In this document: positions 205 to 64,000 of the stretch, one piece after another
Layout of the letters: each line of letters starts with the position of its first letter
Position numbering within the stretch: the first letter of the stretch is position 1
DNA from: Scenedesmus sp. PABB004
Taxonomy: Eukaryota
NCBI GenBank assembly: GCA_014905635.1
Contig: JABVCE010000010.1
Span: forward strand, 372,001 to 436,000
Direction: 5' to 3'
DNA: 64,000 nucleotides
Made by a program: the position numbers and the translations under genes
Notes under the pieces: generated by a model
What the model saw: only the letters and a program-made list of their open reading frames with translations
The model's database searches: none
What the model was told of the DNA's origin: nothing

Positions 205-3200
205 GGACTCTGCGACGCCCGGCGCCGCCTGCACGACCGACGACGACGGCACGTGCGCACTCGACCTGCCGCCGCCGCCGGGCGGCGGCTACGACGGGAC
301 GTCCAAGTCGGCGGTCGTGACGGCGGAGGGGCACGGCCCGCTCGTGCTGCCGAGCGTGGCGATCAGCTACGTGTCCCGCTGGCCCGCGCACGCGGCGGCG
401 CTGGTGCTGGACCGCGCCGTCGTCAAGCCGGGCGACGCGCTGCACGTCACGGGTGCGCGCGCTGCTCCGGCCCCGTGGCACGGCCAGGCACGCTGGGCGC
501 GCCGGCCCGCCGCGCCCGCCTCCTCACCTGCCGCCGCCCCTCGCCGCGCGCGCGGCCCGCCAGGCTTCATCCAGCGCCGCGATGGCACTGCGCTGCGCGT
601 GGACCGCGGCCTGAAGTCGGTCGTCCTGCAAGTCAACCCCGGCTTTGGCGGCGCCGACGGCGACGGCGGCTCCACGCGCGTGACCGCGGCGGTCGACGCG
701 TCGTTTGGCAGCGTGCACGCCGTCATCCCCGTCCCCCGCAACGCCACACCCGCGCAGTACACGCTGCAGCTGGTCGTGCCCGCGCCCGGCGCCGCGGCGC
801 CCCCGCCCGGCGGCGCCGCGCCCGACGGTGTCATACCGCCGGCCGCGCCGCCGCCAGCGCCGCCGGCGCCAGAGGAGCTCGCCGCGACCGTGGGCTTTGC
901 CGTGGCCGACCCGCGCCCGCCGACGGCGGCGCTCGTGCTGTCGGCGCCGCCGTGGGCGCGCCCGGCCGCCGCGGTGCCGGTCACGCTCGCCGCCGAGTCG
1001 TACCTCGGCACGGACGTTTCTGGCGCCAACGTCACGCTCGCCTGGGAGACGCGCCGCGCGCGCGGCAGCCTCGTGGCCACGACCAACGCCTCGGGCGTCG
1101 CCACGGCCGTGGTTGAGCTGGGCAAGCTGCCGGCCGCCAACGCGAGCGAGCCGGGCGACACCCTGACGCTCCGGGCGACCTGGATCGGCCCGACGCGCGA
1201 GGCGATCGTGCAGAGCAAGACCGTCAGGTGGGGCGGCGTGCGGCGCGGCTGCTGCTGCCGCTGCTGCGGCTGGCCGGCGCGGCGCGGCAGCAGCCGCTGC
1301 TGGCGCCGCCGCTGGCCGGCGCGGTCGGGCGCGAAACGGCGCGGGCCGGCGCCGCCGCCGCTGCGCGCTTGCAGGATCGAGGACGGCCCCGTGCGCGTGC
1401 AGCTGGCGCGCACGCTGCTGACCGACGTGCCCGGCATCCGCTGGGGCGTGCGTGCCGACGCGTTCAGCAACGACGACGACGCCCCGGTGCTCGGTGCGCG
1501 CGCGCGCGCGCCTTGGCGCATGCCGGCGCGCGCGGCACAGCGGATCCCGGCGCGCGCGCCGCCGCGCCGAGCGCGCCGACCCCGCGCGGCGCCCGCCCGC
1601 GCCCTGGCGGCGGCGCGCGCAGGCGTGGACGTGGACGTCACGCTGTCAGCGGCCAACGGCTCCGCGTCGCTCGCCAACTGCTCTGCGGCGGCGCGCGCGG
1701 CGCTCGCGGCGCAGCGCTGCGTGATCCGCTCCGGCGACGCCGCCGGCCCCGGCGCGTGCCAGCTCGCGCTGCCCTGCGCCGGCGAGTTTGAGCTGCGCGG
1801 CTGCGTCGCGGGCAGCGTCGCGGGCAGCTGCGGCCGGCCGCTGCGCCTCGGCCACAACGCGTCGTGGTGGGCGGCCAGCCCGTGGAGCACGCCGCCGCGG
1901 CTCAACCTGCTGGCTGATCGCCCCAACGTCACGCTCGGCGGCGAGGTGGCTCTGTCGGTGCAGAACCCCTGGTGGGGCCCCACAAGCGGCCTGCTGGTGT
2001 GGGGCAACGCCGCCAAGCGCGTCGTGCGGCAGCTGCCGCAGGTGGGTCCGCGCGCGCGCCGCCTCGGCCCGGGGGACCGCGCGGCGCCGCGCCCGCGCGC
2101 GCGCCCACCGCCCCCCCCCCCCCCTCCCTGCCCGCGCGCAGATCCCGCCGGGCGCCTCGACCGTGACGGTGTCGGGCATTGGCGAGGAGTGCGTGGGCAG
2201 CTGCCGCTTCGTGCTGCTGCTCGCCGTGGCGCGCGCGGCGCCGCCGGCGGGCGCGTCCGCGGCCGCGCAGCTCGGGCGCTTTGTCGGCGGCGCCCAGGCC
2301 CCGGACGCCCGCCCGGCGGGCGGCGGCGTCCGCATCCGCCTCGCCCTGCCCAGGCTCGGCCTGGGCGCGCGCTTTGCCTCGGCCGGCGGCGCCAGCGGCG
2401 CGGCGCTGGGCGACGGCGCGGAGGGCTTTGCACTGCCGGACGTGCCCACCAGCAAGCTGTTCGACCCCCTCGCGCCGCGCACGGTGTCGGCGGAGCTGCA
2501 GCTCGCGGGGCCGCCGCCGCCGGCGCTGGCCGTCGGCGTCGCCGTCGCGGGGCAGAGCAAGGCCGCGGATGGCACGGCCGTGGTGGAGCCCAAGGCGCGC
2601 CGCACGCGCCCGCCGCGGGCGGGCAGGGAGCGACACGCCGTGCCCGCTCTGTGTGCGCGCGCGCGCCCACGTGCCGCCCGTCCGCCGCCGCCGCGCCCGC
2701 GCGCGCAGAGCGGCCGCGCCGAGCTCAGCGTGCGCGTGCGCGACGCGGCGGGGCGGCCGGTCGCGGGCGCCGAGGTCACGCTGCTCGTGGTGGACCGGGC
2801 CATACTGGATCTGGTGCCCTACCCCCTGCAGGCGCGGCGCGGCGCGGGGCGCGGGGCGCGGCCGCGCGGGGCGGAGGCCTCGCGGCGCCACGCGGCGCCA
2901 CGCGGCGCCCTGCGCCGACCGCGGCGGCGCGCCCCGTGCCGCGCCGCCCGCGTGCACGCAGAACGTGAGCGTGGCGCTCGCGCCCGACCTGGGCGCGTCG
3001 TTTTCGGTGACGGATGTGAACGACCTCCGCGTGACGCGCGCCGCCATCAACGCCACCTTCTCCGCGCTGCAGCGCCGCCTGCGCCTGGACGCGTGGCTGC
3101 CCGCCGACACGGGCGTGAGCCCGGCCAGCCCCTACGTGCCCGACGACGGCGACGGCGGGCGCTGGGCGGGCCCGGCCTGGCCGCCGAGCGCCGCCGCGGC

Positions 3201-6542: not shown

Positions 6543-6736
6543 GCGCGGCGTGGGCGCGGGGCGCGCTGAGCGCTGTTGAGCCGGGTTCAGCGCGCCGCCG
6601 ACCTGCTGCTGCGGGAGGGCGAGAGTTACGTCAGGATTAGTAGTGACTCGCGCGCGCGGCGTGCACACACGTCAAAACCCGCCCTCGCCCCGCACGAACG
6701 ACCAGGGGTGGGGTGGGGAGGCCGCTTGTGCAGCTG
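6497..6736 (+). repeat. Inverted duplication A, copy 1 (last codons and 3' UTR of the A2M gene)
   Basis: ggttttcggggccggactgcagcgcgttcagcagcgccgggtgag...gagagttacgtcagg...aggggtggggtggggaggccgc is the reverse complement of 18823-19070, with scattered substitutions and indels. Confidence 0.9.
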
Positions 6737-7982
6737 CCGAGGGGGGTGTGGGACTATTTGGCACGCGCCGACGCGGGACAGCCTGCCCCGTCGTCGCCGC
6801 GCCCGCGCAATCGGCCCACGAACGCAGTAGTAAGCCGCAGCGCGATTGTGGAAAACCCGCCCTTGCCCGCGCAAGGGGCGCCGCAGCCCCGCGGCGCGCG
6901 ACCGCGCGTGCGATGCTGCCCAGCTGCCTAACGCCGTCGTCCGCCACGCCGAAGCTTGCCTGGTACTAAGCTGCCGCTGCGTGCGAGCCCCCACCCCCGC
7001 CTCCCCCGTAGTAATGAGACCCAGCAGGAATGCCGCCACTTTGACCGCCGCGCGCCGGACGCTGCGGCCAAACCCCTGGGCGCCGCGCTCTGCGCATGCA
7101 GCAGGCATGAGGCGCGCAGGCAGGTGGGCTGAGCAGTGCAAGCCGAGCCGAGCTCGGAGGGGGGAGGGGAGAGGCGTGGTGGTGCGGCAGGGCGCACGCG
7201 CGAGGGCGCACCTCGGCGGCGGCCCTGCCGGCCATCGCCGGTCGCCCGCCGCCGATCGATCCCGTCGTCTTTAGTACAAGTGCGCTCCAAATACTCCTCC
7301 CCCCGTTGTAATACGACCACACAAACACGAGACCAGTACAGGCGGGGGGCGCAGCGCCGCCGCCGCCGCCGGCATGCGCCGGCGGCCCAATCAACGTAAA
7401 CCGCGCACGTGCCGGCGGCACGCTGCAGCGCCGGCGCCGCGGCCGCGGCCCTGCGCGCGCGCGAGCGCGCGCGCGCGCGCGCGCGCGCGCGGCCGCTGGC
7501 CGCTGGCCGCCGCCGCCCAGGCGGGCAAACCAATCCTGGGCTGCATGCGCGCGGCGCCCAAGCAAGCAGCAGCATGCACAGCGCGGCCGCGATTCCCAGG
7601 CGCGCACCAGCGGCGGCCGCACGGCGTGGCAAGGGCAGGCGCCCGTGCCGCCGCCGCCGGCGTGCCGCCGCAGCCGCGCACACACAGGCAGGCGGCGGGG
7701 GCCGCAGCCACGCGCACAGGGTGCGGCTCCGCACCCTTGCTGCCACGCTCGGCCATAGTAGGCTGTTTGTACGCGAGTTGGGGTTCAGGCGCTCAAGGGG
7801 AGGCGCTTCTTCACCGGCACGCCGCTGTGTCAAAAACACACGCGCCCGCGCTGCCGTATCGCGGCGGCGCTCGCCGCCCACGCTCCTCGCTCGTGCGCGC
7901 GCGCCGCGCCCGCTGCCTCGCTGGCTGGCTCACAGAGTTGGGTTGGGTTTGGTGGCGGCGGCCCCGGCGCCGCAGGGGCGCG

Positions 7983-16249: not shown

Positions 16250-18382
16250 TCACAGCAGGACGGCCAGGCCCCCCGCGAGCGCGGCGGCGACGGCCGCGAG
16301 CGCCGCGGCCGCGCGCCCGCGCGCCGCGCCGGCGGCCGCGCCGCTCGTCGGCGTGGGGCAGTTGAGCGCCTGCGTGCTGCCAAAGGTCCCGATCTCGGAC
16401 GGGCTCACCCCCAGCTTGGCGTAGGTGGACTCCAGCGCGGGCTGCACGATGCGCAGCACGTTGGGCGGCACCGGCGCGCCGGGCGTCATCACGGCCTTGA
16501 CCGCCGCGGCGCTGCGGTTGTTGGCCGCCGCAACGAGCGGCTCGATCGTGCGGAAGAACGCGGCGCCCTCCGCCTGCGCGGCGCGGCGCGGCGCGCGGCG
16601 CGGCAGCTTTGTTTTTTGTGTACGCAGGCATGCGCGCGGCCGGGGCAGGGGGGCGTCGCACGCGGCAGACGGCGGGGCGCGCGGCGAGGGCGGCGGGTGC
16701 TGCGGCTCTCCCGGGGCGCGCGCGCAGACGCGCTGGCCCCCCGCCGCCCCACGCCCGCCGCGCCGCGCCGCGCCGCGCCGCGCCGCACGCGCCTGGTCGG
16801 CGTCGAGCGTCTCCTTGTCGTTGTTGGCGACCGCCCGGTCCATGAGCGTCGCGTACTTCAGCGTCGCCTGCGGCGCGCGGCGCCCCGGCGCGCGGCGCGG
16901 CGGCAGCGGCGGGGCGTCAGGCCACACCCCGCGGGGCGGGCGCGCCGCCGCCGCCGCCGCCGCATTGACACCGCCGCGCCGGCCACGCGCCGCGTTCAGG
17001 CGCGGCGCGCGCCTGGATGTAGGTGACGACGAAGAGGCGGACGACCTCGGCGCGCGCGGCCTCAAACGCGCGCAGGTTGCCCTCGCTCGCGGCGGCGTAG
17101 AGCTGGCGGTGCGCGGCGAGCATCGCCGCGTTGACCATGCTGCGGCGCGGCGCGGCACGCAGAGCGGGAGGGGCGCGGGGCAGGGGGCGTCGGCGAGCGC
17201 GCGCACGCAGGCGCGCTGCGCTGAGCGGGCGCTGAGCGGGCGCTGAGCGGGCCCGCGCCGCGCGCCCGCGCTCGCCTGGTGTCGCAGCCCTGCAGCGTGC
17301 CGAACTCGCGCGCGCGCCGGTGGCTGGCGCCCCAAAGGCTGCAGTCGGGGCGCTCTCCGACGTAGATCGCCCAGGTCTCGTCCACGTTGTGGGGCGCGCC
17401 TGCGCGGCGGCGGCGGTGCGCAGCGCGTGGACGCCCCCGGCGCGGCGCCTCGGGTGCGGCCCCCGGCCCGCGCGCCTGCGCGCCCGTGCTCAGCGCGCGC
17501 CGGCGCGCGCCGCACCGTCCTTGGGCGAGAGCTTCTTGGCCTTGATCTTCTCCGCCGCCTCGTCCAGCTCATGCAGCAGGTACACCTGGGCCGCCGCGCG
17601 CAGGGAAGGCGGCGGCGCGGGGCGGCGCACGCGTCGGCCGGACGCCCAGCGCCGCGCCGGCGCCGAAGCGGCGCGCCCCGCCCGACGCCCGACGCCCAGC
17701 GCGCCGCCGCCGCCGCCGCGGCGCGCCGTCTGCAGGTTGCTCTCGAGGCCCTTGACGATCGTCTCGTTGCGCTGCCCCGTGGTGAGGTACGGCGCGTCGC
17801 CGGCAAAGGCAAAGCTCACGGGCTGGTCCAGGAACGCGGCCGTGCCAAAGTGCTCCGCGTAGAGATCAAACACCGGCTCGCCCGCGTAGCTCTTGGTCGC
17901 CAGCTCTGGCGGTGCGCGGCGCGCGGGCGCGCGGTGGGGCGCGGCGCGGACCGCGGCGGCGGCCGGGGCGCCGTGCGCGGCGCGGCGCGGCGCGCGCACC
18001 GCGCAGCGTGCGGATCGTGCCGTCGCTCTTGTACGAGTTCTTGCCGTCGATGTAGATCTTACGCGCCTCAGCGTAGTCGGGGTTGGCGTCGGGGCTGCGC
18101 GCGCGGCGCGCGGCGGCGCGCGCGTGGGCCGGCGCGCGGCGGCGCGGCGGCGCGCCTGGCGGCTCTTTTGATGTTGCACCCGATGGCCTTCTTGATGTCG
18201 CAGACATCCGTCGAGAGGCGCAGGTAGCCCGCCACGTCGCTGCCAAAGGTGTAGCCCGGGGCGTGGCTGATCTGGGAGCCGGTGGTGTCGGTGTAGCCCG
18301 CGGGCGCGGCGCCGGCGGCGCCGGCGGCGCACAGCGCGCCCACGAGCGCGGCCGACAGCAGCGTGCGGGCGAGGCGGGCCAT
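16250..18382 (-). CDS. FEA1: FEA1/H43-family iron-assimilation protein with signal peptide and putative GPI-anchor tail (8 exons)
   Basis: Signal peptide MARLARTLLSAALVGALCAAGAAG. Family-like motifs AEARKIYIDGKNSYKSDGTIRTL, VYLLHELDEA, HNVDETWAIYVG, RRAREFGT, VTYIQATLKYA and AEGAAFFRTIEP. Hydrophobic C-terminus SGAAAGAARGRAAAALAAVAAALAGGLAVLL. Confidence 0.8.
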
Positions 18383-25694: not shown

Positions 25695-27547
25695 ATGGCG
25701 CGTGCGATCGTGGTGCTCCTCGTGATCGGTGAGAGGTCCACAGGGGCCTGCGCGGTACCGCGCGGCGGGGCGCGGCACCGCAGCAGCACTCGGAGCTCAT
25801 CATGCCCAGGTTGCCTCCAGCCCCGCGCCGCGGCCGCCCCGCTGGTCGCGAAGGGCAGTCATAGTGCGGCTCGCTCAGACCAGCTCGGCACTGGCCGCGC
25901 CGGCGCACCGGATCGCGCCGTGCCGCGGCGCCGCTGCCCAAAGCTCACCCGCCGCCCGCGCTCTCCCTGCTCACCCGCCGCCGCCGCCGCCGACGCCGCT
26001 GCTGGCACGTGCCGTGGCGCGCCCGCAGGCGCCGCGACGGCCGCGGCCGCGCAGCAGACGTCGGCCGCGCCGACGGCGTGGTGGGGGTCCAAGCCGACGG
26101 ACAAGTGCACGCCGTACAACGTCGAGGGCTACCGCAGCCTCGACAGCGTGTGCGCCATCCTGGACGGCGCGACGACGGCGCAGCTGGACAGGCTCTACCT
26201 CAGCGCCAAGCCCCCCACGGCGGGGCAGGGCTTCCCGCTGCGCGGCTGCACCTACGGCTGCGTGCCGGGGAGCAACGGCGTCGAGGCGATCACGCGCCTC
26301 CCGCAGGCGCGCCGCGCCGCGCCGCCCCGCGCCGCCGCGCCGCGGCGCCGTCCAAGGGCCGCGCAGCCGCTGCCCGCCCTCGCGGCCGCCCGCCGCGCGC
26401 CGCTGCCCGCCCTCACGGCCGCGCCCGCCGCGCCGCCGCCAGACCAACATGGGGTGGAGCGGCAAGTGCTTCAGCTTCCAGATCAACGCCACGACCGGCA
26501 CGCCGATGACGCTCCTCAACGCGTTTGCCCCAAAGTGAGCACACGGGGGGCGTCTGCCCGCTCGCAGCGCCCTGCCGCGCGGCGCACACGCCCGCGCGCG
26601 CGAGCCCCGTCCTGCTCCCCGCGCCCGCGCCGCGCGCCGCTCGCGCGCCACGCCCGCCGCCCCACCGCGCCCACGCAGGTACGAGTACGCCGTCGACAAG
26701 CAGGCGGCCCGCGTCAACGGCACCATGGCCGGCTTTGCGAGTGCGCGCGGCGGGGGGGGGGGGGGGGGGGGCGGCGGGGCCCGACGCACCTCGCTCGCGC
26801 CTCGCGCGCGCGCCGCCGCCGCCGCCGCCGCCGCCGACGGCACGCCCGCGCCGTGCGCCCGCGCCCGCCCCTCCCCCAGACGTGTACTGGGAGCCTAAGA
26901 GTTTCAGCGACGGGCGGCCGGTGTGGACGTTCAACTACACCAACTCGGCCGACCTCTTTGACCCGTCGCTCGACGACGCGGTGGAGGTGCAGAGCATCCG
27001 CGACGAGGCGCGCCTCATCTCGCCGGGCTTCATCCTTGGTGCGCCCTGCGCCGCCGCCGCGCCGCGCAGCAGGCCCCGCGCGGCAGCCCCTGCGCCGCCG
27101 CACCGCGCGGTCTTGCACGCCGCGCCTGCGGCACCGAGTCGCTCGCTCGAGCGCGCGCCCCGTCGGCCCTGCCGGCGACAACCACGCTCCAGGCCGCATG
27201 TACATCCAGACCAGCGCCAAGAAGGGCGTGGAGGTGCCCATATACTTTGCCCTGTTCCAGGCGGTGAGCTGCGATGCGGGGTCCATGGTGGTGCTAGCAG
27301 CTGGCCACGCGGCGGCCGCCCGGGCGGCGCGCCGCGCGCGGCGCGGCAAGCCCCTGCGCCACGCCCTGCACGCGGCCGCCGGGCGCGCGCTGCGACCCGG
27401 TGCCGGACCGCAGCCCCGCCGACCGCGCCCGCGCCCGCGCCGCAGTGCACGGCCAACGGCCAGTACGCGACCACGCCCGGCGCGCGCGCGCTGCCGCCGC
27501 TCGGCGGGCTCACGCTGCCCGGGTCCACCGTCGGCCTCGGCGTGTGA
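25695..27547 (+). CDS. Secreted hypothetical protein resembling an uncharacterised bacterial family (7 exons)
   Basis: Signal peptide MARAIVVLLVI...; motifs QLDRLY, GWSGKCF, VYWEPKSFSDGRPVWTFNY, IRDEARLISPGFILGRMY and IYFALFQ, which recall bacterial WxGKxF...SxxDG...RDExRxxxPGxxLG hypothetical proteins. Confidence 0.65.
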
Positions 27548-31370: not shown

Positions 31371-33871
31371 ATGCACCGCCCGCCGCCGGCCCAGCTGCAG
31401 GCCGCGTCCTGCCGCGGCAGGTTGCCAGCGCGCTCGCGGCCGGCGGCGGCGCGCGGCTCGCGGCCGACAGCAGCAGCTGCGGCGGCCGCGGGCGCGGAGG
31501 TGCCGCCGGAGCTGCCGGAGCGGGGGCAGCGCGCGGCAGCGGAGGAGGTGCCGAAGGAGGAGGCGTGGGACTACGTGGCGCCGCCGGAGCTGCTCGCGCG
31601 CAACCGCGTGTGGGCGGACGCCGCGCTGCGCGGCCGGACGCTGCTCGCGCCGCTCACCAAGGGGGGCAACCTGCCGTTCCGCCGGCTCTGCGTCGACTTT
31701 GACGCCGAACTGCGGACGATGAGCGAGATGGCCTTCGCTCGGAAGCTCGTCAAGTGCGCGCTCCGCAGCTGCCGCCGCCGGCGGCCAGGCGCGCGGTCGC
31801 GCGGCGCACTCGCCCGCGCCGCGGCGCAGCTCACGCGCGCGCACCCGCCGCGCCGCCGGCGGCCGGCCCGGCCCGGCCCGCCGGCGCAGGGGCGACCGCG
31901 TCGAGAACGCGCGCATGTACCGCGCGCCCAACGAGCTCTGCTTCGGCGTTCAGGTGCGGTGCGCCCGCCCGCGCCGCCGCGCGCGCCTGCCGCCGCGCCG
32001 GCTTCACAGCGCCCCCTCTGCCCCGCGCTGCCGCCCCCTCTCTGGCCGCAGATCGCGACCAACAGCATCGCCGAGGGCCTCGCCGCGTCGCGTGCGGCCG
32101 CCCGAGCTGGCGCGTCTTGGATCGATTTGAACTGTGGTGCGGGGGCCATGGCGGGCGCGCGCCCTGGGCAGGCGCAGCGGCGGCGCCCGCGCCCGACCGC
32201 CGCGCCCGGCCGCCGCGCCGCGCGCGCTGGCATGGCAGGGTGTCCCATCTTTGAGGCGACGCGGCGCGGGCTCGGCGCGGCGCTGCTGCGCAAACCCACA
32301 AAGCTGGCCCGCCTGGTCGCTGGCATCGCGGCCGGCTCAGAGCTCCCCGTCACCGTGAAGATCCGCACCGGTGCGCCGCGCCGCGCCCCCGCCGCGCGGC
32401 AGCCCCGCCCCGCGCGCCGCCGCCGACGGCGCCGCGCTGCGCCCTGTGACTGCGCCGTGTGACCCGCGCCCCGCCCCCGTGCGACCGCGCCCCGCGCCCG
32501 CGCCCGCGCCGGGGCCAGGCGAGTCCGACCGAAAGGTCAACGCGCCGCGCGTCGTCGCGCTGCTGGAGCAGGCCGGCGCGGCAGCGGTCACCGTGCACGG
32601 CCGCACAATGGAGCAGCGGTGCGCCCGCGCGCCGGCGGCGCTCGCCGCGCCGCGCTGCCGGCGACGCGCGCCGCTCTGACCCGCATGCCGCGCCCGCCGT
32701 ACCTAGCTACAAGAAGGCAGCTGACTGGGCGCTCATTGCGTCGCTCGCGGCCGCGCACCCGGGGCTGGCGCTGCTGGGCAACGGCGACCTCCTGACGCAC
32801 TATGAGGCGGACGCGCGGCGCCGCAGCGGCGTCGCGGGGCTGATGGTCGGCCGCGGCGCGCTGATCAAGCCCTGGATCTTCGAGGAGCTGCGCGAGGCGC
32901 GGCGCGGCGCAGGGGGCGGGGCGCGGCAGGCGCCGGGGTCATGCGACGCACCGCGCCGCGCGCCGCCGAGCGGCGCCGAGCGCGCCGGGCGGCCGCCGCC
33001 GCGCGCCGCAGGGCCGCGAGCTGCTGCTGACGGCGGCGGAGCGCGTCGGCGTGTATCGCCGCCTCGCCGGCCACATGAAGGTGTGTGGCCGCGGCGCGGG
33101 TGCCGCTGCCCGCTTGCCACAGCGCGCCGCCGCGCTGAGCGCGCCGCCCCATGACATGACCCGCGCCGCGCCCCGCGCCGCCGCGCCAAGGCGCACTTTG
33201 GCGACGACGCCTGGGGCAAGCGCAAAGCGTTCTACTTTTTCCCCTGGCACTTTGCCTTTTTCTCGAGGTGGGCGGCTCACTGCGACTGCCTCGCCGGTCC
33301 TGCGCGTGCAGGCGGTCTCCTGCGAGCTGTGTGTGCCCTGGGGCAGCGCCGCCGACGGCCGCCCGCCTCGCCACGCCTGCTCCTCCGCCTGCCCCCCCCC
33401 CCTGCCTCTCGCCGCCGCCAGGTACCGGCCGCTGCCGGCCGAGGTGTACGCCGCGGACGCGGCGCGGCACCCGCTGATCGCGACGCGCAGCGACCTCGCC
33501 GACCCGCGGGCGAGTGCCGGCGGCCGCGGCGGCGCCCGGCTGCTGCGGCCCGATCGCGCCGGCGCGGCGCGGCGCGCGCGCGCGAGCGCGCGCGTGCAGC
33601 ACGCGGCCGACGCTGGGCCTGCCCCTGCCGCTGCCGGCAGGTGGGCGAGAGCGAGGCGGAGCTGCCGCTGCTCGAGAGGCTTCTGCGCTGCGAGGCGGAG
33701 GCAGCGCACGGCCCAATCGCAGAGGCGATCTGGGACGCAGCCAGCGACGCCGACGCCGTCACCGCGCTGGAGGCGCTCGCCGCGTCGAGCCTCGCGGGCT
33801 GGGAGGAGGAGCTGCGCGCGGGCGGGCGCGACGGCAGCGGCCGCGACGACGACGCGGCGGTGGAGGGCTGA
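31371..33871 (+). CDS. tRNA-dihydrouridine synthase, DUS3-like (10 exons)
   Basis: LAPLTKGGNLPFRRLC, FGVQIA, IDLNCGCP, PVTVKIRTG, VTVHGRTMEQRYKKAADW, GNGD, GLMVGRGALIKPWIFEE, HFGDD. Confidence 0.92.
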
Positions 33872-36918: not shown

Positions 36919-36953
<35 letters not shown>

Positions 36954-36960
36954 CGCGCCT

Positions 36961-36995
<35 letters not shown>

Positions 36996-39080: not shown

Positions 39081-39865
39081 ATGCCGCGCCTCAGGCAGCA
39101 CCCCCACCCCGGGGAAGACGGCCCCGCGCCCTGGGGCAGCAGCAGCAGCAGGAGCAGCTGCAGCAGCAGCGCCTGGAGCGGCAGCAGCGCCTGGCGCGGC
39201 AGCGGTAGCTGCGGCAGCGGCCGGCCGCGGCGGCGCGGCGCCGCGCCGGCGCCGCGGCTGGCGCTGCTCCTCCTGCTCGTCGCGGCGGCGCTGGCGCCGC
39301 GCCCGGGCGACGCCGCGGCGCAGCAGCCGTGCATCGAGTGCGACCAGTGCCTGACCGCGAGCTGCCAGCGCATCTGCTCGCCCTCGTGCCGCACCGGCCG
39401 CGCGGCGGGCGGCGGCGGCGGCGTGATGATGAACGGCGACCGCTGCCGCGCGATGGGCGAGGACGCGGCCGACCAGGTCGCCGACGCGGCCTGCCGCACC
39501 ATCCAGGCGCGCGCCGCGCGCGGGGCGCGGCGCTGCGCCCAAACGCGCCGCGCGGGGGTCGGCGCGCGGTGCGGCGGCGGCCGCGCGGCGCCGCCGCCCA
39601 CGCCGCGCGTGCGCCGCCCGCACCGCAGGCCGCCTGCAACGCCGGCACCAAGTCGCCGCTCGCGTTCCAGAGCTCGGGCCCCGTGTCGGCGAGCGAGTGC
39701 GGCAGCATCGCCAACGGCGCGTGCCAGCGCGCCGCGCTCGGCAGCACCAACACGCCGTGCGGCGTGTACCTATATTTCGGCTTCCGCAGCTGCAGCGGCC
39801 GCCAGTTCAGTGACATGTACAAGGGCCGCGTCGTCACGCTCTGCCGCGGCGCGACAAACCTGTGA
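39081..39865 (+). CDS. Small secreted Cys-rich protein (2 exons, GC-AG intron)
   Basis: Hydrophobic RLALLLLLVAAALAPRPGDAAAQ is followed by PCIECDQCLTASCQRICSPSC...CRTIQ|AACN...ECGSIANGACQ...PCGVYLYFGFRSCSGRQFSDMYKGRVVTLC. Start codon uncertain. Confidence 0.65.
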
Positions 39866-40626: not shown

Positions 40627-41766
40627 TCAGCTCGCCAGGACGCGCACTGGCACGCCGGCGGGCAGCGCCTCGGCGGCGGGCGCCTCGCGCGGCGCGAATA
40701 TCTGGGGCAGCACCTCTGGCAGCTGCGTGAAGCTCGCGATCACGAGGTCGGCGCCCTCGTGGTGGTGCGGGTGGTGCCCCGGCGATGCCGCGAGGCTGGG
40801 CGAGACGAGGACCGAGAAGATGCCGACCTCCTTGGCCGCCGCGACGTTGCGCGGCGAGTCGTCGACAAAGATTGTGCTGCTCGCGCGCGCGCCGAGCTGC
40901 GCCAGCACCAGCTCGTACACCTGGCGGCGCGGGCGGCGCGGCGCCGGTGCGCGCGCGAGTGGGGGCATGCGCACAGCGGCGGAGCGCTCGCGTGCGCGGG
41001 AGGGGCCGCCCAGATGCGGGGCGGGCCCGTCCGGCCGGCCGCGACGCACCTGCTTGGCGGGCTTGCACATCACAGGCGCTTCTGCGCTGAGCGCGCCCTT
41101 GGCGGCGGCCAGCTCCATCACGCTCTCGAAGCACCACACGCTCTGCGCGGCGGCCCGGCCACGCGGCGGCCGCTGAGCCAGGCGCGCGGCGGCGGCGCCG
41201 TCGCCGCCTCCCTGCCGCCGCCCCTGCCGCCGCCGCCCCTGCCGCTGCCGCCCGGGGCGCGCCTGGAAGCAGTCGGCAAGGCCCATGCGCTCGAGGCAGG
41301 CCGCCGTGTGCGCGGCGTCTGCGTTGGTGAGGATGTGGCGCTGCAGGTTGAGGTCGAGCAGCACCTGCCGCGTCGCGGGCTGCGGGGACAGCAGGCGGGC
41401 GTAGTCGAGGCTGCCGTGCACCTCCGCGTGCCAGTGGTCCCAGTCGAGCGCGTGCCCCGTCGCGGCGAGGCCCGCCATCGTCGTGCCGTGCGCCGCGTAA
41501 AGCTCCGCGGTGAGCGCCGCCGCGGCCTCCGCCGGCACGCCCAGGTGCCGCACGATGTACGCTGCAGGCGGTGGCGGCGGGCCGGTCAGGTCAGGGCGGG
41601 TCGGCCAGGGCGTGCGGCCCGCCCGCGGCGCCGCCGCACCCGTGATGTTGGCCCGCACGGTGGCGGGGATCTCGTCGTTGCGGTAGAGCGTGTCGTCGAG
41701 GTCTATGAGGATGGTGTCAAACTCGCGGCCGTGCGGGAAGAGCGGCGCGCCGCTGAGCTGCTGCAT
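40627..41766 (-). CDS. HAD-superfamily pyrimidine 5'-nucleotidase (SDT1-like, 4 exons)
   Basis: Motif I ILIDLDDTLY; LYAAHGTTMAGL; ILTNADAAH; MCKP; IFVDDSPRNVAAAKEVG. Confidence 0.88.
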   Translation of the reverse strand: MQQLSGAPLFPHGREFDTILIDLDDTLYRNDEIPATVRANITGAAAPRAGRTPWPTRPDLTGPPPPPAAYIVRHLGVPAEAAAALTAELYAAHGTTMAGLAATGHALDWDHWHAEVHGSLDYARLLSPQPATRQVLLDLNLQRHILTNADAAHTAACLERMGLADCFQARPGRQRQGRRRQGRRQGGGDGAAAARLAQRPPRGRAAAQSVWCFESVMELAAAKGALSAEAPVMCKPAKQVRRGRPDGPAPHLGGPSRARERSAAVRMPPLARAPAPRRPRRQVYELVLAQLGARASSTIFVDDSPRNVAAAKEVGIFSVLVSPSLAASPGHHPHHHEGADLVIASFTQLPEVLPQIFAPREAPAAEALPAGVPVRVLAS

Positions 41767-44159: not shown

Positions 44160-44489
44160 GCGGCGCGCCCGGCGGCGCGGCCCGCTGAGCCCCGCCGCGT
44201 GACAAGCGCGCCGGCGCGTGGGTAATCCTGCGCCTTCCGCGCTCGGGCACGCACTCGACAGCACCGCGAGGACCCCACCAGCAGGCGCGCCCGCCCCCGC
44301 GGCCGCCTAGCGTGCGCCGACTCGAATCACGCGGCCGGCGCCGCGCCCGCAGCGCCCGCCCGCGCGTCCACCGAGCGTTTCGAGCTCCGGGAGCCGTCCG
44401 AGCGAGGCCTGGGCGCTCGCCACGAGCGGGCCGCGCTGCGACAGCGCACCGCGCCGTGTCGCCGCCGCGCGCCGCGCCGAGCAGCGACG

Positions 44490-47152
44490 ATGCCGCCCCT
44501 GCGAGGAGCCTCACTGATCGGCGCCCTGCTGCTCCTCGCCGCCGCCGCGGCGCCACCGGCCGCCGCGTGTGAGCGCTGCGTGCGCCGCGCCGCCGCTGCG
44601 CGTGCCGCGCCGCCGCCGCCGGCGCCCGCAGCGCGCAGCTGCTGACGCGGGCCGCGCCGCCGCCAGTGCCGCACTTCATGGGAGCCAACGCGTACTGGAT
44701 GCCCTCCTCGGCCGCCGCGGGCGACACCGGCGCGGTGGACAGCGTGCTCGATGGCCTGCAGCGCCTGGGACTGACCGTCGTGCGCACGTGGGCGTTTGGC
44801 GACGGCTTCCCCGCGGCGCCGGGGGAGTACGACGAGGCGCAGGCGCGGCGGCGGCGGCGGCGGGGCAGCGCCGGGGTTAACTTGCGCCGCGCCGCCGCCC
44901 CGCCCGCTGGCGCCGCCGGCTGTACTGACGGCCAGCCGTCACCCCCAGGCTGCGCGAGCGGCGGCTGAGTGGCTCGGCCCTCGCGCGGCGCCGCGCCGCG
45001 CCGCGCCGCGCCGTGCCACGGCAGGGCCGCGGGCTCGACTACGTCGTGGCCGGCGCCGCGCGGCGCGGCCTGCGCGTCGTCCTCGCGCTCGGCAACTTCT
45101 GGCCGGCGTACGTCGGCCCCGAGCGCTGGCTCGCGTGGGCCGAGGGCAGCGCCGAGGGCAAGACCGTTGCCGACTTCTACGCGTGCGCCACCGCCGCTGG
45201 CCGTGTCGCTGGCTGCGGCGCCCGCGCCCCGGCGCCGCGCGCGGCGTCGCGCCGAGGCGGCGGCCCGCCCGCGCCCGCGCCCCCACGCCGCGCGCAGGAG
45301 CGGCCGCGCGGCGGCGCTGTTCGAGGCGCACATGCGCAGCGTGACGGCGCGCGTGAGCACGGTCAGCGGCGTCGCGTTGCGGGACGAGCCGGCGGTCATG
45401 GGGTATGACATCCTCAACGAACCCAGGTGCGCGCCGCATGCGCCCACGGCGCCCAGGCGGCGGGCGGGGGCGGGCGCGGCGCGGTGCTGGCCGGCGGCCC
45501 GCGCGCGGCCGCGCGCCGCGCCGCAGCGCCGCCAGACGGCCCCGCGCCGCGCAGGTGCCCCGGCTGCGACGCCCGGGGCATCGCGGCGCGCGACGCGTGG
45601 CTGCGGCGCATGGTGGAGGCGCTGCGCGCCGCGGCGCCGGGGCAGCTGATTTTCAGCGGGACGGAGGGCTATTTCGCGCCCGGCGACCCCCGCGCGGCGT
45701 ACAACCCCGGCGCAGGTGCAGGCCTGCGCGGCGCACGGCGCGGCGCGCGGCGCGGCGCGCGGGCCCGAGCGCCGCCGCGGCGCCGCCCCGGGCCCGCTCC
45801 GCAGGCGGGCAGTGCGAGGGCGAGCACTGGTCGCAGGAGGTGGCCTACGCTGACGTCGCGACCGTGCACATCTACTACAGGCGCGCGCGCCCCATGGGGC
45901 AGTGGCCACTGCCGCCCCGCCGCCGCCACCCCGCCTGGCCGCGGCCGCGCCGCGGCGCGCCACCCGGCCGCGCCGCGCGCGACACCGCCGCGCTGCGCCG
46001 CCGCGGCGCCGCGGCAGGCAGCTCGAGTCGCTCGCGCACCTGGGCTGGTCAAAGCCCGGGTTTGACGCCTACGCTGCCTTCCTCGCGGCCAAGCTGCGAC
46101 TCTACGACGACGACGCGCGCGCGGCGGGCAAGTGCGTGGCGCGCCGGCGGGCGGGCGCCTGGCGGCGGGCGCCGGCCCCGCCAGCTGGCCTGCAGGGGGT
46201 GCCGCGCCAGGCCCGCGCGCGCGCAGGCGGCGCCCCGCGCGCCCCGCCAACCCCGCCCGCACCGCCCCGCCCCCGCCCCCGACCGCGCCAGGGAGCTGGT
46301 GATCGAGGAGGTGCGTGCGGCTGGCCGCGTGTGGGCTGCGCGGCACGCGGCGCGCCGGCCGCGCCGGCCGCGCCCGTGAGCGCCGCCCGACCGGCGCGCC
46401 GCCGCGCGCAGTTTGGCCTGTCGCGGCGCTTCTTCGGCGAGGAGGAACGCAAGGCGCGCGCGCGCGCGCCGCGGTCTGGCCCGCCCCACCATGCCTCGCC
46501 TCACGCGCGTGCGGCCCCGTGAGCGTCGCCGCCGCCGCCGCCATCGCCGCAGGTGGTGTTTGCCATCGTCGGCGCCGCGCTCGTCGCGGCCAAGCAGCGC
46601 GGCGGCAACCTGCGCGGCGCGCTCATCTGGAACGCCGCGCACCCGGGTGCGCCCGCCGCCGCGCGCCGCTGCTGGCCAGCCATGGCGCCGCGACCGCGTG
46701 CTCCCCCTGCCGCGGCGGTCAGCACCACCGCCGCGGCTGCCCGCCGCCGCCGCCGCCGCCGCTGCGCAGGGCAGCCGGACGTGGGTGGCTACAACGTGGA
46801 CGTCACGCGCCCGCCCAGCGCTGGCGCGGCCGCCAGCCTCGGCGCCCGCCTGCGCGGCGGCGGCGGCGGAGGCGGCGGCGGCAGCGGCCCGCGCCCCAGC
46901 CCGCGCCCCAGCCCGAGCCCGCAGTTTGGGCGGCGCCTCGCGCAGCTCGTCGTCACGCCGGGGGACGACGTCCTGGACGCGTTCCGCCGCGGCCCCGCGC
47001 GCGAGGCGTGTGCGGCGGCCGCGGCCGGCAGCTGGGCCCTGGCCCCCGACGCGCGCGGCGGCGGGCCCGACGTCGGCGCGCTGCGCGCCGCGGTCGCGGG
47101 GGTGGACGTGGTGGACGTGATCGCCCAGGTCACGCGCGCGCTCGCCGCCTGA
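44490..47152 (+). CDS. Secreted GH5 endo-beta-1,4-mannanase-like glycoside hydrolase (~11 exons)
   Basis: Signal peptide; FMGANAYW, GLTVVRTWAFGDG, GLDYVV, LRDEPAVMGYDILNEPRC (acid/base Glu), TVHIY, ELVIEE|FG (nucleophile Glu), GALIWN. Confidence 0.88.
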
Positions 47153-55218: not shown

Positions 55219-56117
55219 ATGCCGTGCATCCAGGTCACCACGAACGTGCCCCTTGGCGCCAAGCCGGCGCTGGCGGCGGCGCTGACGGCGCTCTTCAGCA
55301 CGGCGCTGAAGGTTGGCGGCGGATGTCGACCGCGCGCGCTGTCGCGCGCGCGCGCCGACCCGCAGCGCGCGCCGCAGGCCGCGCCGGGGCACGTCCACGT
55401 CGCCATCATCGACGGCGCCTTCATCTCGCTCGCGGGCGACGCCGACAGGTGCGCGGCGCAGCTCAGGCCCACAGGCCCACCGCTGCGCGCCCCTCGCTCC
55501 ACGCCCCCCCCCCCCTTCCCCTGCCGCCAGCGCCGCCGCGCTCGTGAGCGTCAAGGCGGCCGACGGCAGCATCACCGCCGACGCGCGCAAGGCGATCACC
55601 GCCGGCATCGGCGCCGCGCTTACGCAGGCGCGCGCGCGTGCACGCGCGGGCGCGCGCACGGCCGCGGCTGTGGACGCTGCCGCCGGCTGCGCGGCGGGGA
55701 CTGGCGCGGCAACGCACCCGCCCGCGTCCACGCCCGCCCACGTCCGCGCCCGCCCACGTCGCGCGCAGCACGTGTCGCCGTCGCTGCAGGCCGGCCGCTC
55801 GTACATCACGTTTGAGGTCGGCGCGGCGGGCGCGCGGGCAGGCGCGGCAGGGCGCCGCACCCGGCACCCGCCGACCGCCCGCGCCGGGGCCCCGCCCGTC
55901 TCGCAGGACCTGCCCGTGCAGAACGTCGCCGTGGGCGGCAGCATCATGACCTTCAGCACCATGCACACGTGCGCAGCGCGCGGCGCGCCGCGGCCGCGGC
56001 CGCTGGCGGGACCTGCGGGCCCTCGGGACCAGCGCCGGCGCCGCCCGCCGCTGCCCGCCCGCCGCGCCCAGCAGCGCGAGGAGCGTCGACGTGCCAATCG
56101 ACGACATCGCGCCCTGA
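55219..56117 (+). CDS. MIF/D-dopachrome tautomerase-family protein (6 exons)
   Basis: N-terminal catalytic Pro in MPCIQVTTNV; HVHVAIIDGAFISLAG, AALVSVKA, RSYITFE|DLPVQNVAVGGS. Confidence 0.8.
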
Positions 56118-57541: not shown

Positions 57542-60261
57542 TCACTCGTCGCAGTCGATGCTGATCACCTCTGGCAGCTCCTCGGCGCCGTGCACCGCGG
57601 CGGCGGGCGGCGCCTGCAGTCGCTGCCGCTGTGGCGGCTGCGGCGGCGCCGCCGCCGCCGCCCCCGACGCCGCGGCCGCGGCGACCGCCGCCGCCTGCTG
57701 CAGCCGCCGCTGCAGCCGCTGCCGCCGCTTGCGCTGCTGCTTTGCCGTCCGGGCCGCCTGCGTCGCCGCCGCTGAGCGCTGCGCGGCCTTGCCCCGGCCG
57801 CTGCGCGTGCGCGCCGCGACCGGCGGGCTGCTCGCCTCGTCCCCTTCTGCGGCGCTGGCGCGCGCGCGCAGAGCCGAGGGCAGCGAGCCCGCGCCGCCCA
57901 GGTTGGCGCTCGTGCCGCCCGCGCCGGCGACCTCGCGCCCGGCCGACCAGGTCGCGAACACCGCGGCCGGCGCGGCGTCGCAGCTGTCGCACGCGTCCGA
58001 CTCGCCCCCGGCCGGCGGCGCTCCGCGCATGGCCGCGACCGCTGCGGTCGCCGCCGAACCGGGCGGCGCCGGCGCCGTGCGCGCGGGCGGCGGCGGCATG
58101 TGCACCACCGCCGCCGCCGCCGCCGCCGGGTCCTCGCCCTCGCTGTCGCTGTCGCTGAGCGTCAGGTCGACGCGCGCGTGCTTGCCGGCGCGCCGCGGCT
58201 CGCCGTCGGCGTCGTCGCCGTCGCCGTCGTCGCGGCCGCGCTTGAGCCCGGCGCCGCCGGTGAACGCGCCGCGCAGCGCGGCGGGCGCGGGCGGCGCGAG
58301 CACGTCGAACCAGCCGCAGCCCGCGGCGGCGCCCTTGGGCCGCCAGCGGCCGTCTGCGCGCCGCACGTGCGCGCGCGCGGCGCGGGGCGGCGGCGCGGCC
58401 CACGGCTCAGCGCGGCTCAGCTCGCCGGGGGCTCGCGCGGCGCGGCCGCAGCGGCGCGCCCCGCCGCGGCGCCCCCCCCCCCCCTCGCCCCCGCCCCCAC
58501 CTGGGGCCACCTCGACCTCGTCCACCGTGTCCAGCCCCGCGCCGCGCAGCGCCGCGAGGACCGCGCCGGTCCACGGCTCCACCGCGACCTGGCCCACGTG
58601 CCCGAGCGCCATGCTCGTGGGGCAGCGGCAGCAGCCAGTGCGCTGGGACACCGCCAGGAAGGCCGGCAGGTCAAAGCAGGCCAGCCCCGGCGCGGTCGTG
58701 AGGTGCGCGGGCTCCGACATGCGCACGCCGGCCAGCGGGCAGCGCAGCGACAGCGTCGTCGTCGACAGCTCCACGTCGCCGTCGCCGGCCAGCTGCGCGC
58801 GCGCGCCGGGGCGGCGAGCGTGGGCGGCGGGCGCGCGGCGGCGGCGGCGCGCGGGCGGCGGCGACCCCGGGCGCGCGCGCGCGCACGCACCTTGGCCTTG
58901 ACGCTCGCGACCGCGTCGGCGAGGCTCGGCGTGGGCGCCATCATCGCGCGCACGCGGGCCTCGCTCGCGCCGCGCACCAGGCGCAGCACCAGCACGTACG
59001 CCGACGCCGACCGGGGCGACGCCGCGAGGCGCACCGCGACCTCGCCCGCCGCGAGCGCCGTGACGTCGGCCGGGCGGTCGACCTGCTGTGCGCCCAGGGG
59101 CTTCACGCGCCTGAGCACGGTGATGAGGCGGCCGTTCACGCTCAGCGCCGCGCCCGGCGGCCAGTGGCAGCGGTGGGGCTGCGCGTCGCCGACCTGCAGG
59201 CATACCAGCTGCAGCGTCGCGGTCTTGGCCGCCAGCATGTTGAGCTGGCGGCTGGCCAGCTCGACCGTCATGGCACAGCTCGGACTCGGCGGCGGCGGGT
59301 CGCCGGCCGCGGGCGGCGGCGCGGCGGGCAGGTGCGCGACCGCGACCACGCCCGCCTCGTCCAGGGTGGCGCTGCCCAGCCAGGGGTCCAGCAGGCGGAG
59401 ACGCCACCGCAAGTAGGCCTCAGGGCTGTCGCTGCCGGCCTGCGCCGCACCGCGCTGGGGCGACCCCTGCTGCACCTGCCGCGGCTGCGGCGGAGGGGGC
59501 TGCTGCGGCGGCGGCGGCGGCGGGACCACCTGCTGCTCCTGCTGCTCCTGCTGCTGCTGCTCCTGCTGCTGCTGCTCCTGCTGCTGCTGCTCGTGCTGCT
59601 GCTGCAGCTGCTGCTGCTCCTGCTGCTGCTGCTGCAGCTGCTGCTCCTGCTCCTGCTGCTGCGCCAGCTGCTGCTGCTCCTGCCGCCGCTGTGCCTCTGC
59701 CTGCTGCTGCTGCTGCTCCTGCTGCCGCTGTGCCTCTGCTTGCTCCTGCGCCTGCTGCCGCCGCTGCGCCTCTGCTTGCTGCTGCTGCGCCAGCCGCTGC
59801 GCCAGCTCCTGCTGCTGCTGCTGACGCTGCTGCTGGCGCTGCGCCTGTGCTTGCTGCTGTTGCTGCTGCGCCAGCTGCTGCTGCTGCTGCTGCTGACGCT
59901 GCTGATGGGGCTGCGCCACTGCTTGCTGCTGCAGCCACTGCTGTTGCTGCCAGCCGCTCGAGCCGCCGCCGCCCCCCCACTGGCGCAGCGGCGGCGGCGG
60001 CGGCGGCGGCAGCGGCAGCGGCGGCTGCTGGTACGCCTGCGGGTGGCCCAGGAGCGCCGCCGCGTAGCTGCCGTATGCGGGCGCGTAGCTCGGCGGCGGC
60101 GGCACCGCGGCGAACTGGCCGGCCGCCTGGTGGTGCGCGTGCGGCGCGCCGCCGGTGCCGCCGTAGGCCTGCGCGTACAACCCGAGGCTGTAGGGGTCGG
60201 GGAAATAGGTGCTGTAGCCGTTGTTGTAGCCCCCGCCGCCGGGATAGGGCGGGAAGGCCAT
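57542..60261 (-). CDS. SIZ1/PIAS-like SP-RING SUMO E3 ligase homolog with poly-Q N-terminus (3 exons)
   Basis: PINIT-like LQLVCLQVGDAQPHRCHWP...SVNG...DRPADVT; SP-RING-like LSLRCPLAGVRM...CFDL...CRCP; EVEVAP|DGRWR; SIM-like VDLTLSDSDSE and EVISIDCDE. Confidence 0.75.
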
Positions 60262-61104: not shown

Positions 61105-62379
61105 ATGGCGGCCGCCGAGCCGGAGCTGAGCGGCATCCAAGTCTGCGTCCGGGTGCGCCGCGTAGTGCCGGACGCCCGAAACTAGCGCGGCGGCGCGCTG
61201 ACCGCAGGGGCAGCCCTTTGCAGCCCCTCCCTCCCTCCCCCGCTGGTGCTCAGCAGCGCCTCGCCAGCTCCCGCGCGCCGCCGCCGCGGCGCGGCCGTGC
61301 GCGCTGTGGCCGCCGGCCGCGCTGCGGCCGCCGGCCGCGCTGCGACCACCGGCCGCGCGCAGGTGCGCCCCCTGAGCGACCGCGAGCGCGATGCCGGCTT
61401 CCGCAACTGCGTCAGTTTCGACGAGGCGACGCAGCAGGTGGTGCTCACGGTGAGCTCGGCGGCCGGCGCCCGACGGCGCGGGCAGGCCGCGCCGCGCGCT
61501 GCGCGACGCGCGCCGCGCGACCCGCGCGCCGCCCAGCGCGGGCCCAGCGTTCGTCGCGCGCCGCACCCCCGCGCAGGCTGTGGACCGCGGCACGCTGCTG
61601 CAGCTGCGCGGCCAGGCGGCCAAGGGCTTTGCGTTTGACCGCCGATTCGGCCCCGAGCACACGAGCGACACGATCTACGACGACGTCGTCTGCCACCTCG
61701 TGGACAACCTGTTCAAGGCGCGGCGCGGCGCAGCACGCGGCGCGGCGCGGCGCGGCGGGCCCTGCCTGCCCGCCCGCGGGGACGCGCGCGCAGCGCGGCG
61801 GCGGCGGCGGCGAGGCGCTTGTGTGCCGCGCGCGCAGGGCTACAACGCGACGGTGCTGGCGTACGGGCAGACGGGGTCGGGCAAGACGCTGACGATGTCG
61901 GGCGGCCGCGGCATCCACGGCGTCAGCGAGTCGGGTGCGCGCGCGCGCGCGCGCGCGGCGGCCGCGGCCGCGGCGGCTGGCCCGCGTGTGCCACGGGCCG
62001 CCCCGGCGCGCGCGCAGCGCACGACCCGCCGCGGCTGCGCCGCGGCCGTGGCGCCAGGCATCATCCGCCGCGCCGCGGAGCACATCCTCGCGCTTGCCGC
62101 CGCGGCGCGGTCCAAGGCCAAGCCCGGCGAGAGCGTGGCGGTGCGGGCGTATGCGCTTGAGCTCTACAACGAGGAGCTGCGCGACCTCAGCAGCCGCGTG
62201 CCCGCGGGCGCGCCCGCAGCGGGCGACCGCGAGCCCGGCGGCGGCGGCGCCGCCGAGCCCGCCGTGCGCATCGCGGAGCGCCCGGTCGGCAAGGACGGGC
62301 GCTGCGTGCCCGAGGTGCGGCGCGGGCGCGGGCGCGGGCGCGGGCGCAGCCACCCCGTCCTAGGGTGCGCGCGCGGGTC

Positions 62380-62412
<33 letters not shown>

Positions 62413-64000
62413 CCGTCGGCGCTGCGCCAGCGCAGGTCGTGGGCGTGAACACGGTGGAGGTGGGCGACGCCGAGTCGCTCGTCTCGTTCTTTGCCGGCGC
62501 GTTTGAGAACCGCGCGGTCGCGGCGACCAAGATGAACGGCAGCAGCAGCCGCAGCCACGCGATCTACACCGTGCTGCTCAGCCGCACGCTGCCCGACGTC
62601 AGCGAGGGCGGCGACAAGGCGCGCGCACGGCGCGGCGCGCGCCCCGCGCGCCCACCGGCGCCTCGGGCCTCGCGCGCGCGCGCGTGGTGGCCTTGCCCCG
62701 GCGGCCAGCGCCCTCTGCTCGCTCCCTCGGTCTCTTGGCCCCACACTCACATGCACGCGCACGCGCACACGCGCACACAACACCCGTGTGCCTGCAGGTG
62801 CGCACGGTGCGCGTGGAGAGCCGGTTCAACCTGGTCGACCTCGCCGGCAGCGAGCGCGTCAAGCGCAGCGGCGTGACCGGCGCGGCGTTCAAGGAGGCCG
62901 TCCACATCAACGGCGGCCTGCTCGCCCTTGGCAACGTCATCGTCGCGCTCTCGGGCGGAGCACACGACCCCGCGCCGCCGCCGCCGGCGCCGCCCGGCGA
63001 GCGCGGCGCGGCGCCGCCGCCGCAGGGCGAGCCGCCCGGCGGCGGCGGCGCCAAGAAGCACATCCCCTACCGGTGGGCCGGGGCCCGGGGCGGCGGCCGC
63101 TCCGCCGCGCCTGCCGCCGCGGCCGCCCGCCGCTGACCGACCGCGCCTGGGACCGCACCCGACGCTCGCGCCAGGGACTCCAAGCTCACGCGCCTGCTGC
63201 AGGACAGCCTCGGCGGCTCCGCGCTGACGGTGCTCGTGTCGTGCGTGTCGTGCTGCGAGGCCGACTTTGAGGAGACGAGCTCGACGCTCAAGTACGCCAA
63301 CCGCGCGTGCCGCATCAAGAACTCGCCCCTGCCCAACGCGCAGCTGCTGCTGGAGGAGGACCTGCTGCCGCTGCTGCCGGGCGGCGCCGGCGGCGGCGGC
63401 GGCGGGGGCGGCGGGGGCATGTCTATGATGCAGATGCAGGTGGGCGCTTGGCCGGCGGGCAGCCGGGCAGCTCGCCGGCGATCCATCCAGCGGCGCGAGC
63501 TGGCGGGAAGCCGCGCCGGGGGCGAGGTTCAGCGCGCCGCGCGGCGCCCGAGCCGAGCCCCCGCGGCCCGCCGCGCCGCCGCCGCCGCCGCAGCTGCTGC
63601 TGGCGGAGCACGCGCGCATGAAGGAATCGCGCGACCGGCTGGAGGCGGAGCGGAAAGAAAAGGAGGAGAAGCGCGCGGCGGACCTCAGGCGCGGCGCGCG
63701 CTGGGCGTGCTGGGCGGTGTGGGCGGCGGGCGGCGGCGGCGCGGCGCGGCGCGGCGGAGGGTGGCAGCGTGCGTGCGTCAACACGGCGCTGCGCGCGCGC
63801 AGGGCGATGCGCGAGGCGGAGACCAAGGCGCCGGGCTTCCAGCGCCTGCGCATGGCGGCGTATGACGAGCTGCGCAAGAAGGCGGCCAGCAGCCACGGCG
63901 GCCGCCTCGGCAAGGGCGAGGTGCGACGCGCGCGCGCGCGCGGGCGGCGGGGGACCCACGCTGCCGCGGCAGCCCGCGCCGCGCCGCGCAGCGTGCGCGC
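61105..64000 (+). CDS. Kinesin motor protein (kinesin-4-like), 3'-truncated by the window
   Basis: [109 protein letters not shown]. Confidence 0.95.

Follow-up and report, generated by a model that had tools for sequence, protein, structure and literature searches.

We analysed a 64-kb stretch of the genome of the green alga Scenedesmus sp. PABB004 (positions 372,001 to 436,000 of contig JABVCE010000010.1; hereafter the window, in whose own numbering all positions are given) for its protein-coding genes and for introns that begin with GC instead of GT and end with AG (GC-AG introns). The G+C content of the window is 79% overall and 77-81% in each 4-kb bin; the whole genome is reported to comprise 39.8 Mb with 78.5% GC (PMC12571836). 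Stop codons are rare, so that long open frames run across all six frames, and the window contains 426 stop-to-stop open reading frames (ORFs) of at least 90 amino acids. Pfam searches with these 426 ORFs revealed eukaryotic genes with short exons, naming the genes and leaving the exon joins unfixed. The genes named are an alpha-2-macroglobulin-like gene (A2M-like), Fea1, a subtilase, a dihydrouridine synthase (DUS), an MFS transporter, a HAD phosphatase, YdcZ, SURF2, a MIZ finger protein and a kinesin. The closest relatives of the kinesin are chlorophycean (Scenedesmus, Tetradesmus and Chlamydomonas), and a protein search in the range of 614-2000 amino acids returned no kinesin named for Scenedesmus sp. 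PABB004. A DUS exon query retrieved 'DUS3L [Scenedesmus sp. PABB004]' (P0011) and a mannanase exon query retrieved 'MAN4' (P0089) of the same organism, both with exons identical to those of the window.

GC-AG introns in five genes

On the plus strand, GC occupies 13,683 of the 63,999 dinucleotide positions (about 21%) and GT 2,476. GC is so common here that a GC at a plausible exon end proves little by itself, and homology is needed. We therefore asked whether the protein encoded by the spliced exons is collinear with that of an orthologue or with a solved structure, using our own spliced protein-to-DNA aligner, in which GT and GC donors carry the same cost. Homology supported 30 introns in five genes, of which 21 begin with GT and nine with GC. 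The acceptor is AG in all 30, and the nine non-GT introns all run from GC to AG, with boundaries fixed by the coding sequence (Table 1). At none of the nine supported sites does an in-frame GT donor yield a collinear protein.

In the kinesin gene, alignments with two orthologues (P0002 and P0003) give nine introns, six with GT and three with GC donors (61718, 62619 and 63689). Two further orthologues (P0001 and P0005) concur save for one or two places of weak conservation, and eight of the nine introns had been found beforehand by eye, by reading three frames against tblastn alignments. The 61718 intron is chosen with all four of these orthologues, which are unbroken across the join, and every in-frame GT alternative lies upstream, within the conserved exon. 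The 62619 intron is chosen with P0001, P0002 and P0003. Here the orthologues keep VSEVGDK-VRTMRVESRF, and the GT alternative at 62598 would remove seven residues that they retain. The 63689 intron is chosen with all four orthologues tried, again unbroken across the join. When the aligner was restricted to GT donors, the 61718 intron was retained, 62598 and 63707 were used, and 106 score units were lost.

DUS3L has nine introns with each of four orthologues (P0012, P0013, P0017 and P0024), seven with GT and two with GC donors (32897 and 33510). Both GC-AG introns are chosen with all four orthologues and are used in the deposited protein P0011, indicating that the depositors' pipeline met GC donors. 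The single GT inside the 32897 intron, at 32938, is out of frame. The donor at 33510 is the one supported instance of the GCGAG(T) variant that the preliminary description had reported for a few introns. The deposited DUS3L model retains one GT-AG intron (32137-32238) in frame, which adds 34 residues between NCG and CPIFEAT. These residues are absent from all orthologues, which read NCG-CPIYEAT without a break.

The A2M-like gene, aligned with five orthologues, has eight consistent introns, six with GT donors (453, 1228, 1494, 2042, 4220 and 5106) and two with GC donors. The intron at 2832 is chosen with four of the five orthologues, and five residues span the join, as in P0090. The intron at 2595 is a probable one. 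It lies in a poorly conserved stretch and is chosen with two of the five orthologues, the other three taking nearby non-consensus sites; the gene model described below picks the GC donor, with a motif score of 8.1. Four further alignment gaps in this gene (2235-2423, 33xx-3481, 59xx-6107 and 636x-6428) were excluded from the counts, as their donors are inconsistent and they look like in-frame low-complexity insertions. The HAD phosphatase has three introns, with donors GT at 41639, GC at 41262 and GT at 41049. Its spliced model shows zero net gap against residues 132-164 of PDB 7ef6, and the 41262 donor has no in-frame GT alternative.

The supported intron of MAN4, a GH5 mannanase, begins at 44843, and the join PGEYDEAQ/GRGLDYVV is gap-free against PDB 9m20_A and 1rh9_A. 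The deposited model instead uses a downstream GT at 44876 (GGG/GTTAAC), which adds 11 residues. Two further MAN4 introns are candidates. At 45881 the GC donor has a model motif score of 7.4, compared with -0.8 for the GT at 45902 that the deposited model takes at the cost of seven added residues. A 42-nucleotide (nt) exon downstream has the GC at 46454 as its only in-frame donor; there is no in-frame GT, and an in-frame TGA follows at 46520. The FG of this exon may complete the GH5 'EEFG' motif. The deposited model omits the exon. A protein search with MAN4 returned PABB004's own model and no orthologue, and a PDB search with the C-terminal exons gave no mannanase match. The preliminary description had predicted that GT-only gene finders would mis-model such genes. 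This is borne out by MAN4, whose deposited model uses 44876 and skips the 42-nt exon, and by the GT-only alignments, which lose 101 score units in one and 141 in the other of the two genes tested.

The deposited MAN4 model (43229-47152) also links a YdcZ-type membrane protein (43229-44089) to the mannanase via a 542-nt intron, and our own gene model fuses the two as well, by way of a GC donor at 44146 that is doubtful. The YdcZ-type protein and the MAN4 mannanase are probably encoded by two genes.

As a control, GC and each of the 14 other non-GT dinucleotides were allowed in turn as the second donor. GC came out ahead in both genes, with a gain of 101 in the kinesin (CG was the runner-up at 68) and of 141 in DUS3L (GG was the runner-up at 117). 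The margins are modest because a slip of one codon costs little, and GC wins at exactly those bases that produce gap-free joins. Five of the nine supported GC-AG introns (62619, 32897, 33510, 2832 and 44843) have lengths that are not multiples of three, so that their removal is required to reach the conserved downstream exons. A metagenome scan for orthologous loci in relatives found none in a first pass; in a second pass 80 loci were kept, at 38-55% identity, and the spans matched in them suggest that introns are few or absent.

Table 1. Introns and donor sites in the window (slash, exon-intron boundary; model only, predicted by the gene model alone)
Feature	Positions	Strand	Donor	Length (nt)	Remark
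Probable GC-AG intron, A2M-like	2595..2708	+	AAG/GCGCGC	114	
GC-AG intron, A2M-like	2832..2961	+	CAG/GCGCGG	130	
Fea1-like gene, five of seven modelled introns GC	16574..18155	-			Donors 18155, 17726, 17275, 17012, 16792; model only
GC donor	26307..26442	+	CAG/GCGCGC		Model only
GT-AG intron, DUS3L	32137..32238	+	G/GTGCGG	102	Example of the local GT consensus
GC-AG intron, DUS3L	32897..33011	+	GAG/GCGCGG	115	
GC-AG intron, DUS3L	33510..33640	+	CGG/GCGAGT	131	
GC donor	39507..39628	+	CAG/GCGCGC		Model only; strand of gene uncertain
GC-AG intron, HAD-type phosphatase	41143..41262	-	CAG/GCGCGC	120	
GC-AG intron, GH5 mannanase MAN4	44843..45024	+	CAG/GCGCGG	182	
Candidate GC-AG intron, MAN4	45881..46017	+	CAG/GCGCGC		
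Candidate GC-AG intron, MAN4	46454..46552	+	AAG/GCGCGC	99	Follows the 42-nt exon
GC donor	55628..55768	+	CAG/GCGCGC		Model only; small gene
GC-AG intron, kinesin	61718..61837	+	AAG/GCGCGG	120	Ends CAG/
GC-AG intron, kinesin	62619..62797	+	AAG/GCGCGC	179	Frame-changing
GC-AG intron, kinesin	63689..63802	+	CAG/GCGCGG	114	

Frequency and motif of the GC donors

The preliminary description had counted about 24 GC donors among roughly 110 introns, compared with around 1% normally in eukaryotes. In the homology set the GC share is nine of 30 (95% interval 15-49%), far above the usual 1-2%, and nine or more in 30 would arise at a 2% rate with a probability of 5e-9. The genes of this set were partly chosen for carrying claimed GC sites, so that the figure of 30% carries a selection bias. 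For the window as a whole we used a self-trained gene model seeded with 17 kinesin and DUS3L introns, five of them GC. Its donor matrix is thus not independent of the motif, and its counts serve as an estimate only. The model contains 33 GC donors in 115 introns, of which 24 have a motif score of at least 5 and nine score lower, close to the earlier manual count. Among the 24, the call at 63916 is wrong (the true donor, 63689, is GC too), and those at 30981 and 44146 lie in doubtful gene fusions; removing such calls leaves about 22 GC donors in about 104 modelled introns. Other errors of the model are 32092 instead of 32137, and 5833. A first run (123 introns, 46 GC) had been dropped for wrong-strand or fused genes at 7574-10137 and 36804-41766, after which the model was retrained and re-resolved. 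Even if all model-only sites were false, nine of about 115 introns (about 8%) would still exceed the usual rate several-fold. Between about a fifth and a quarter of the introns in the window begin with GC, and GC-AG introns are about 20-30 times as frequent here as usual.

All 12 plus-strand positions named in the preliminary description read GC, 11 of them after an exon-terminal AG, and all 12 are donors in plus-strand gene models. For the gene at 39507 the plus-strand model scores 79.5 and the minus-strand model 57.8. The donor at 55628 belongs to a plus-strand model (55219-56117), and an overlapping minus-strand model won the automatic strand resolution there. This small gene sits between minus-strand SURF2-like and Mlf1IP-like genes, and its predicted product starts with MPCIQVTTNVP..., which we take to be reminiscent of MIF/tautomerase proteins. 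The Fea1-like gene spans 16250-18382 on the minus strand. Per-exon Pfam searches gave two weak matches from eight pieces, too weak to fix the joins. Confirmation of its sites would make it a gene whose splicing relies mostly on GC donors.

We then compared the donor motifs. The supported GC donors read AG/GCGCG(C/G), and once GG/GCGAGT. G is present at -1 in 20 of 21 GT and nine of nine GC donors, and at both +3 and +5 in all donors of either class (21/21 and 9/9), confirming that the GC donors mirror the local GTGCG consensus. C at +4 is found in 14 of the 21 GT donors and eight of the nine GC donors. The two classes differ at position -2, where A occurs in 10 of 21 GT donors versus eight of nine GC donors. 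An exon-terminal AG precedes nine of 21 GT and eight of nine GC donors (Fisher p = 0.042), which agrees with the earlier claim that GC donors nearly all follow AG. Among the supported GC donors only that at 33510 lacks A at -2; it reads GCGAGT and regains pairs at +4 and +6. The median intron length is 123 nt for the GT class and 120 nt for the GC class.

Counts of heptamers in the 16 higher-scoring gene models, which are model-dependent, point in the same direction. GG/GTGCG serves as a donor 15 times and occurs three times elsewhere, and AG/GTGCG 14 and four times. Of the occurrences of AG/GCGCG, 15 are donors and 11 are not, compared with one and 86 for GG/GCGCG. With the canonical 5' end of U1 small nuclear RNA (snRNA), GC donors would form 4-6 Watson-Crick pairs plus one wobble pair and GT donors would form 4-7 pairs. 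These counts overlap, so that unchanged machinery can explain the data, and a minimum-pairing rule with an unchanged U1 can account for which GC sites serve as donors. An Rfam scan of the 64-kb window gave no match and no snRNA gene.

Two features of the window lie apart from the GC donors. The segments 11977-12356 and 14884-15266 form an inverted repeat (about 390 nt, 98% identity) that comprises the first two exons and the first intron of two convergent genes, and both products begin with the same stretch of about 65 residues (MAADGKRYWSYEQVHELV...). The MIZ-finger gene (57542-60261, minus strand) has a first exon of 1371 nt with many glutamine repeats.

Origin of the GC donors

The introns described here probably belong to the ordinary GC-AG class of the major spliceosome (U2-type), made common by extreme GC pressure and tolerated where neighbouring positions compensate. 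Position +2 of the intron would hold one of the few T's that the genome must keep, exposed to the pressure toward G and C. A change from T to C at +2 may be tolerated, and persist, where the remaining donor pairs sufficiently with U1. An exon ending in AG might provide sufficient pairing if positions +1, +3 and +5 are all G; alternatively, A at +4 combined with T at +6 might do so. GC pressure is the likely driver, judging from the base composition of the window (79% GC) and from published parallels. We infer both the removal by the major spliceosome and the compensation via U1 pairing, and altered snRNAs are not needed for the data.

Several points weigh against this explanation. In the haptophyte Emiliania huxleyi GC donors are more frequent although the genome is less GC-rich (65%), so the fraction must depend on more than GC content. 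Of the nine supported GC-AG introns, four (61718, 63689, 2595 and 41262) are in frame and free of stops, and retention is possible for them. Splicing at the exact bases is deduced from protein collinearity, in genes partly selected for their claimed GC sites, and the window-wide rate comes from a seeded gene model with known errors and nine low-scoring GC calls. The AG enrichment concerns only nine GC sites, with p = 0.04, and U1 pairing was calculated with the canonical sequence, which may differ from PABB004's own.

Alternatively, the splicing machinery of this lineage might have changed, at the U1 5' end, in U1C or in the U6 and Prp8 contacts at +2, such that C is nearly equal to T. The very high GC fraction (nine of 30 supported introns) would fit such a change, as would the local GTGCG/GCGCG consensus, which departs from GTAAGT at +3, +4 and +6. 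The window itself holds no information on snRNAs or splicing proteins. However, GC donors still need compensation at -2 (eight of nine), and GG/GCGCG is almost never a donor in the models; both observations fit a penalty on C at +2 under unchanged rules, and the pair counts to canonical U1 overlap those of GT donors. We regard a changed machinery as unlikely. The same low credence applies to a bolder version, in which PABB004 has perhaps the most GC-rich eukaryotic nuclear genome described and its spliceosome has co-evolved with it, a changed U1, U1C, U6 or Prp8 making C at +2 regular if the exon ends in AG. If true, this would be a natural, shifted 5' splice-site code within green plants.

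It is also quite improbable, in our estimate, that the tally is inflated, with few real GC donors and the rest chance GC dinucleotides at places that in fact have a GT donor, carry an in-frame insertion or follow another exon structure. GC does occupy about a fifth of all positions, and our aligner places false GC 'introns' at lineage-specific insertions. Nine of the 33 modelled GC calls score low and three more are wrong or doubtful, the choice of 45881 over 45902 remains a candidate, and the five Fea1 sites come from the model only. Against this, nine sites in five different genes stand by homology alone, these nine would by themselves keep the share at about 8% of some 115 introns, and nine or more in 30 at a 2% rate have the small probability given above. 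Finally, an assembly or polishing error turning a true T at +2 into C in a GC-rich context is hardly credible, as it would have to hit the donor +2 in about a quarter of the introns and yet spare the coding sequence, whose exons are identical to the deposited proteins, and since a base-calling error is not expected to make GC and GT donors differ at -2.

Comparison with known GC-AG introns

The GC-AG introns of PABB004 bear on the limits of mutation bias acting on a core splice signal. Few intron bases are more strongly conserved than the T at +2, and PABB004, where a fifth or more of donors have lost it, offers a natural series for the U1 pairing that is required: AG/GC is used and GG/GC is unused, in contrast to AG/GT and GG/GT, which are both used. 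There are consequences for annotation as well. GT-biased models add junk residues or lose exons, and the deposited MAN4 shows both; the deposited DUS3L keeps a 102-nt intron.

Introns of the minor, U12 type resemble those described here in being a non-GT-AG class overlooked by gene finders. The extended U12-type donor motif is (A/G)TATCCTT. It is found in none of the nine GC donors, which read GCGCGC, GCGCGG or GCGAGT, following the local major-type consensus; a U12-type assignment was thus rejected.

GC-AG introns make up about 1% of human introns and 0.3-2% of those in plants and metazoans (PMC3167603; bioRxiv 10.1101/2024.10.30.620910). The PABB004 introns share with those of animals and land plants the AG acceptor, an otherwise GT-class consensus and compensating flanks. 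They differ in being about 20-30 times as frequent and in having the motif GCGCG(C/G) instead of GCAAGT. Our search of the literature outside subscription journals yielded no green alga reported to have a high share of GC-AG introns, and a paper on PABB004 (PMC12571836) contains none of the terms 'splice', 'intron' and 'GC-AG'.

Closer parallels are found in other GC-rich algae. In E. huxleyi, 56% of 241 curated junctions have GC donors, with AG acceptors, in a genome of 65% GC. The junctions were confirmed by expressed sequence tags and some by reverse-transcription PCR, and the authors blame the GC content and note that GT-biased gene finders mispredict junctions (PMC4028052). PABB004 is likewise a GC-rich alga with invariant AG acceptors and wrong GT-biased models. 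It differs in being a chlorophyte in which GC donors are a minority despite a richer GC content, and in that its junctions are deduced from protein collinearity. In Aureococcus anophagefferens and Pelagomonas calceolata, about 14-17% of introns are GC-AG, which is attributed to GC content, and a low-GC relative has 0.32% (bioRxiv 10.1101/2024.10.30.620910). Fraction and proposed cause are similar to ours. These stramenopiles have few introns per gene, in contrast to about 5-13 per multi-exon gene in our model of the window. With 77-81% GC, a GC-AG share above 10% and AG acceptors in 30 of 30 introns, this one 64-kb window fits the class of GC-rich algae. The pattern of GC-AG introns in GC-rich genomes has already been published for a haptophyte and for pelagophytes, and its occurrence in a green alga is, within the literature searched, an extension of it.

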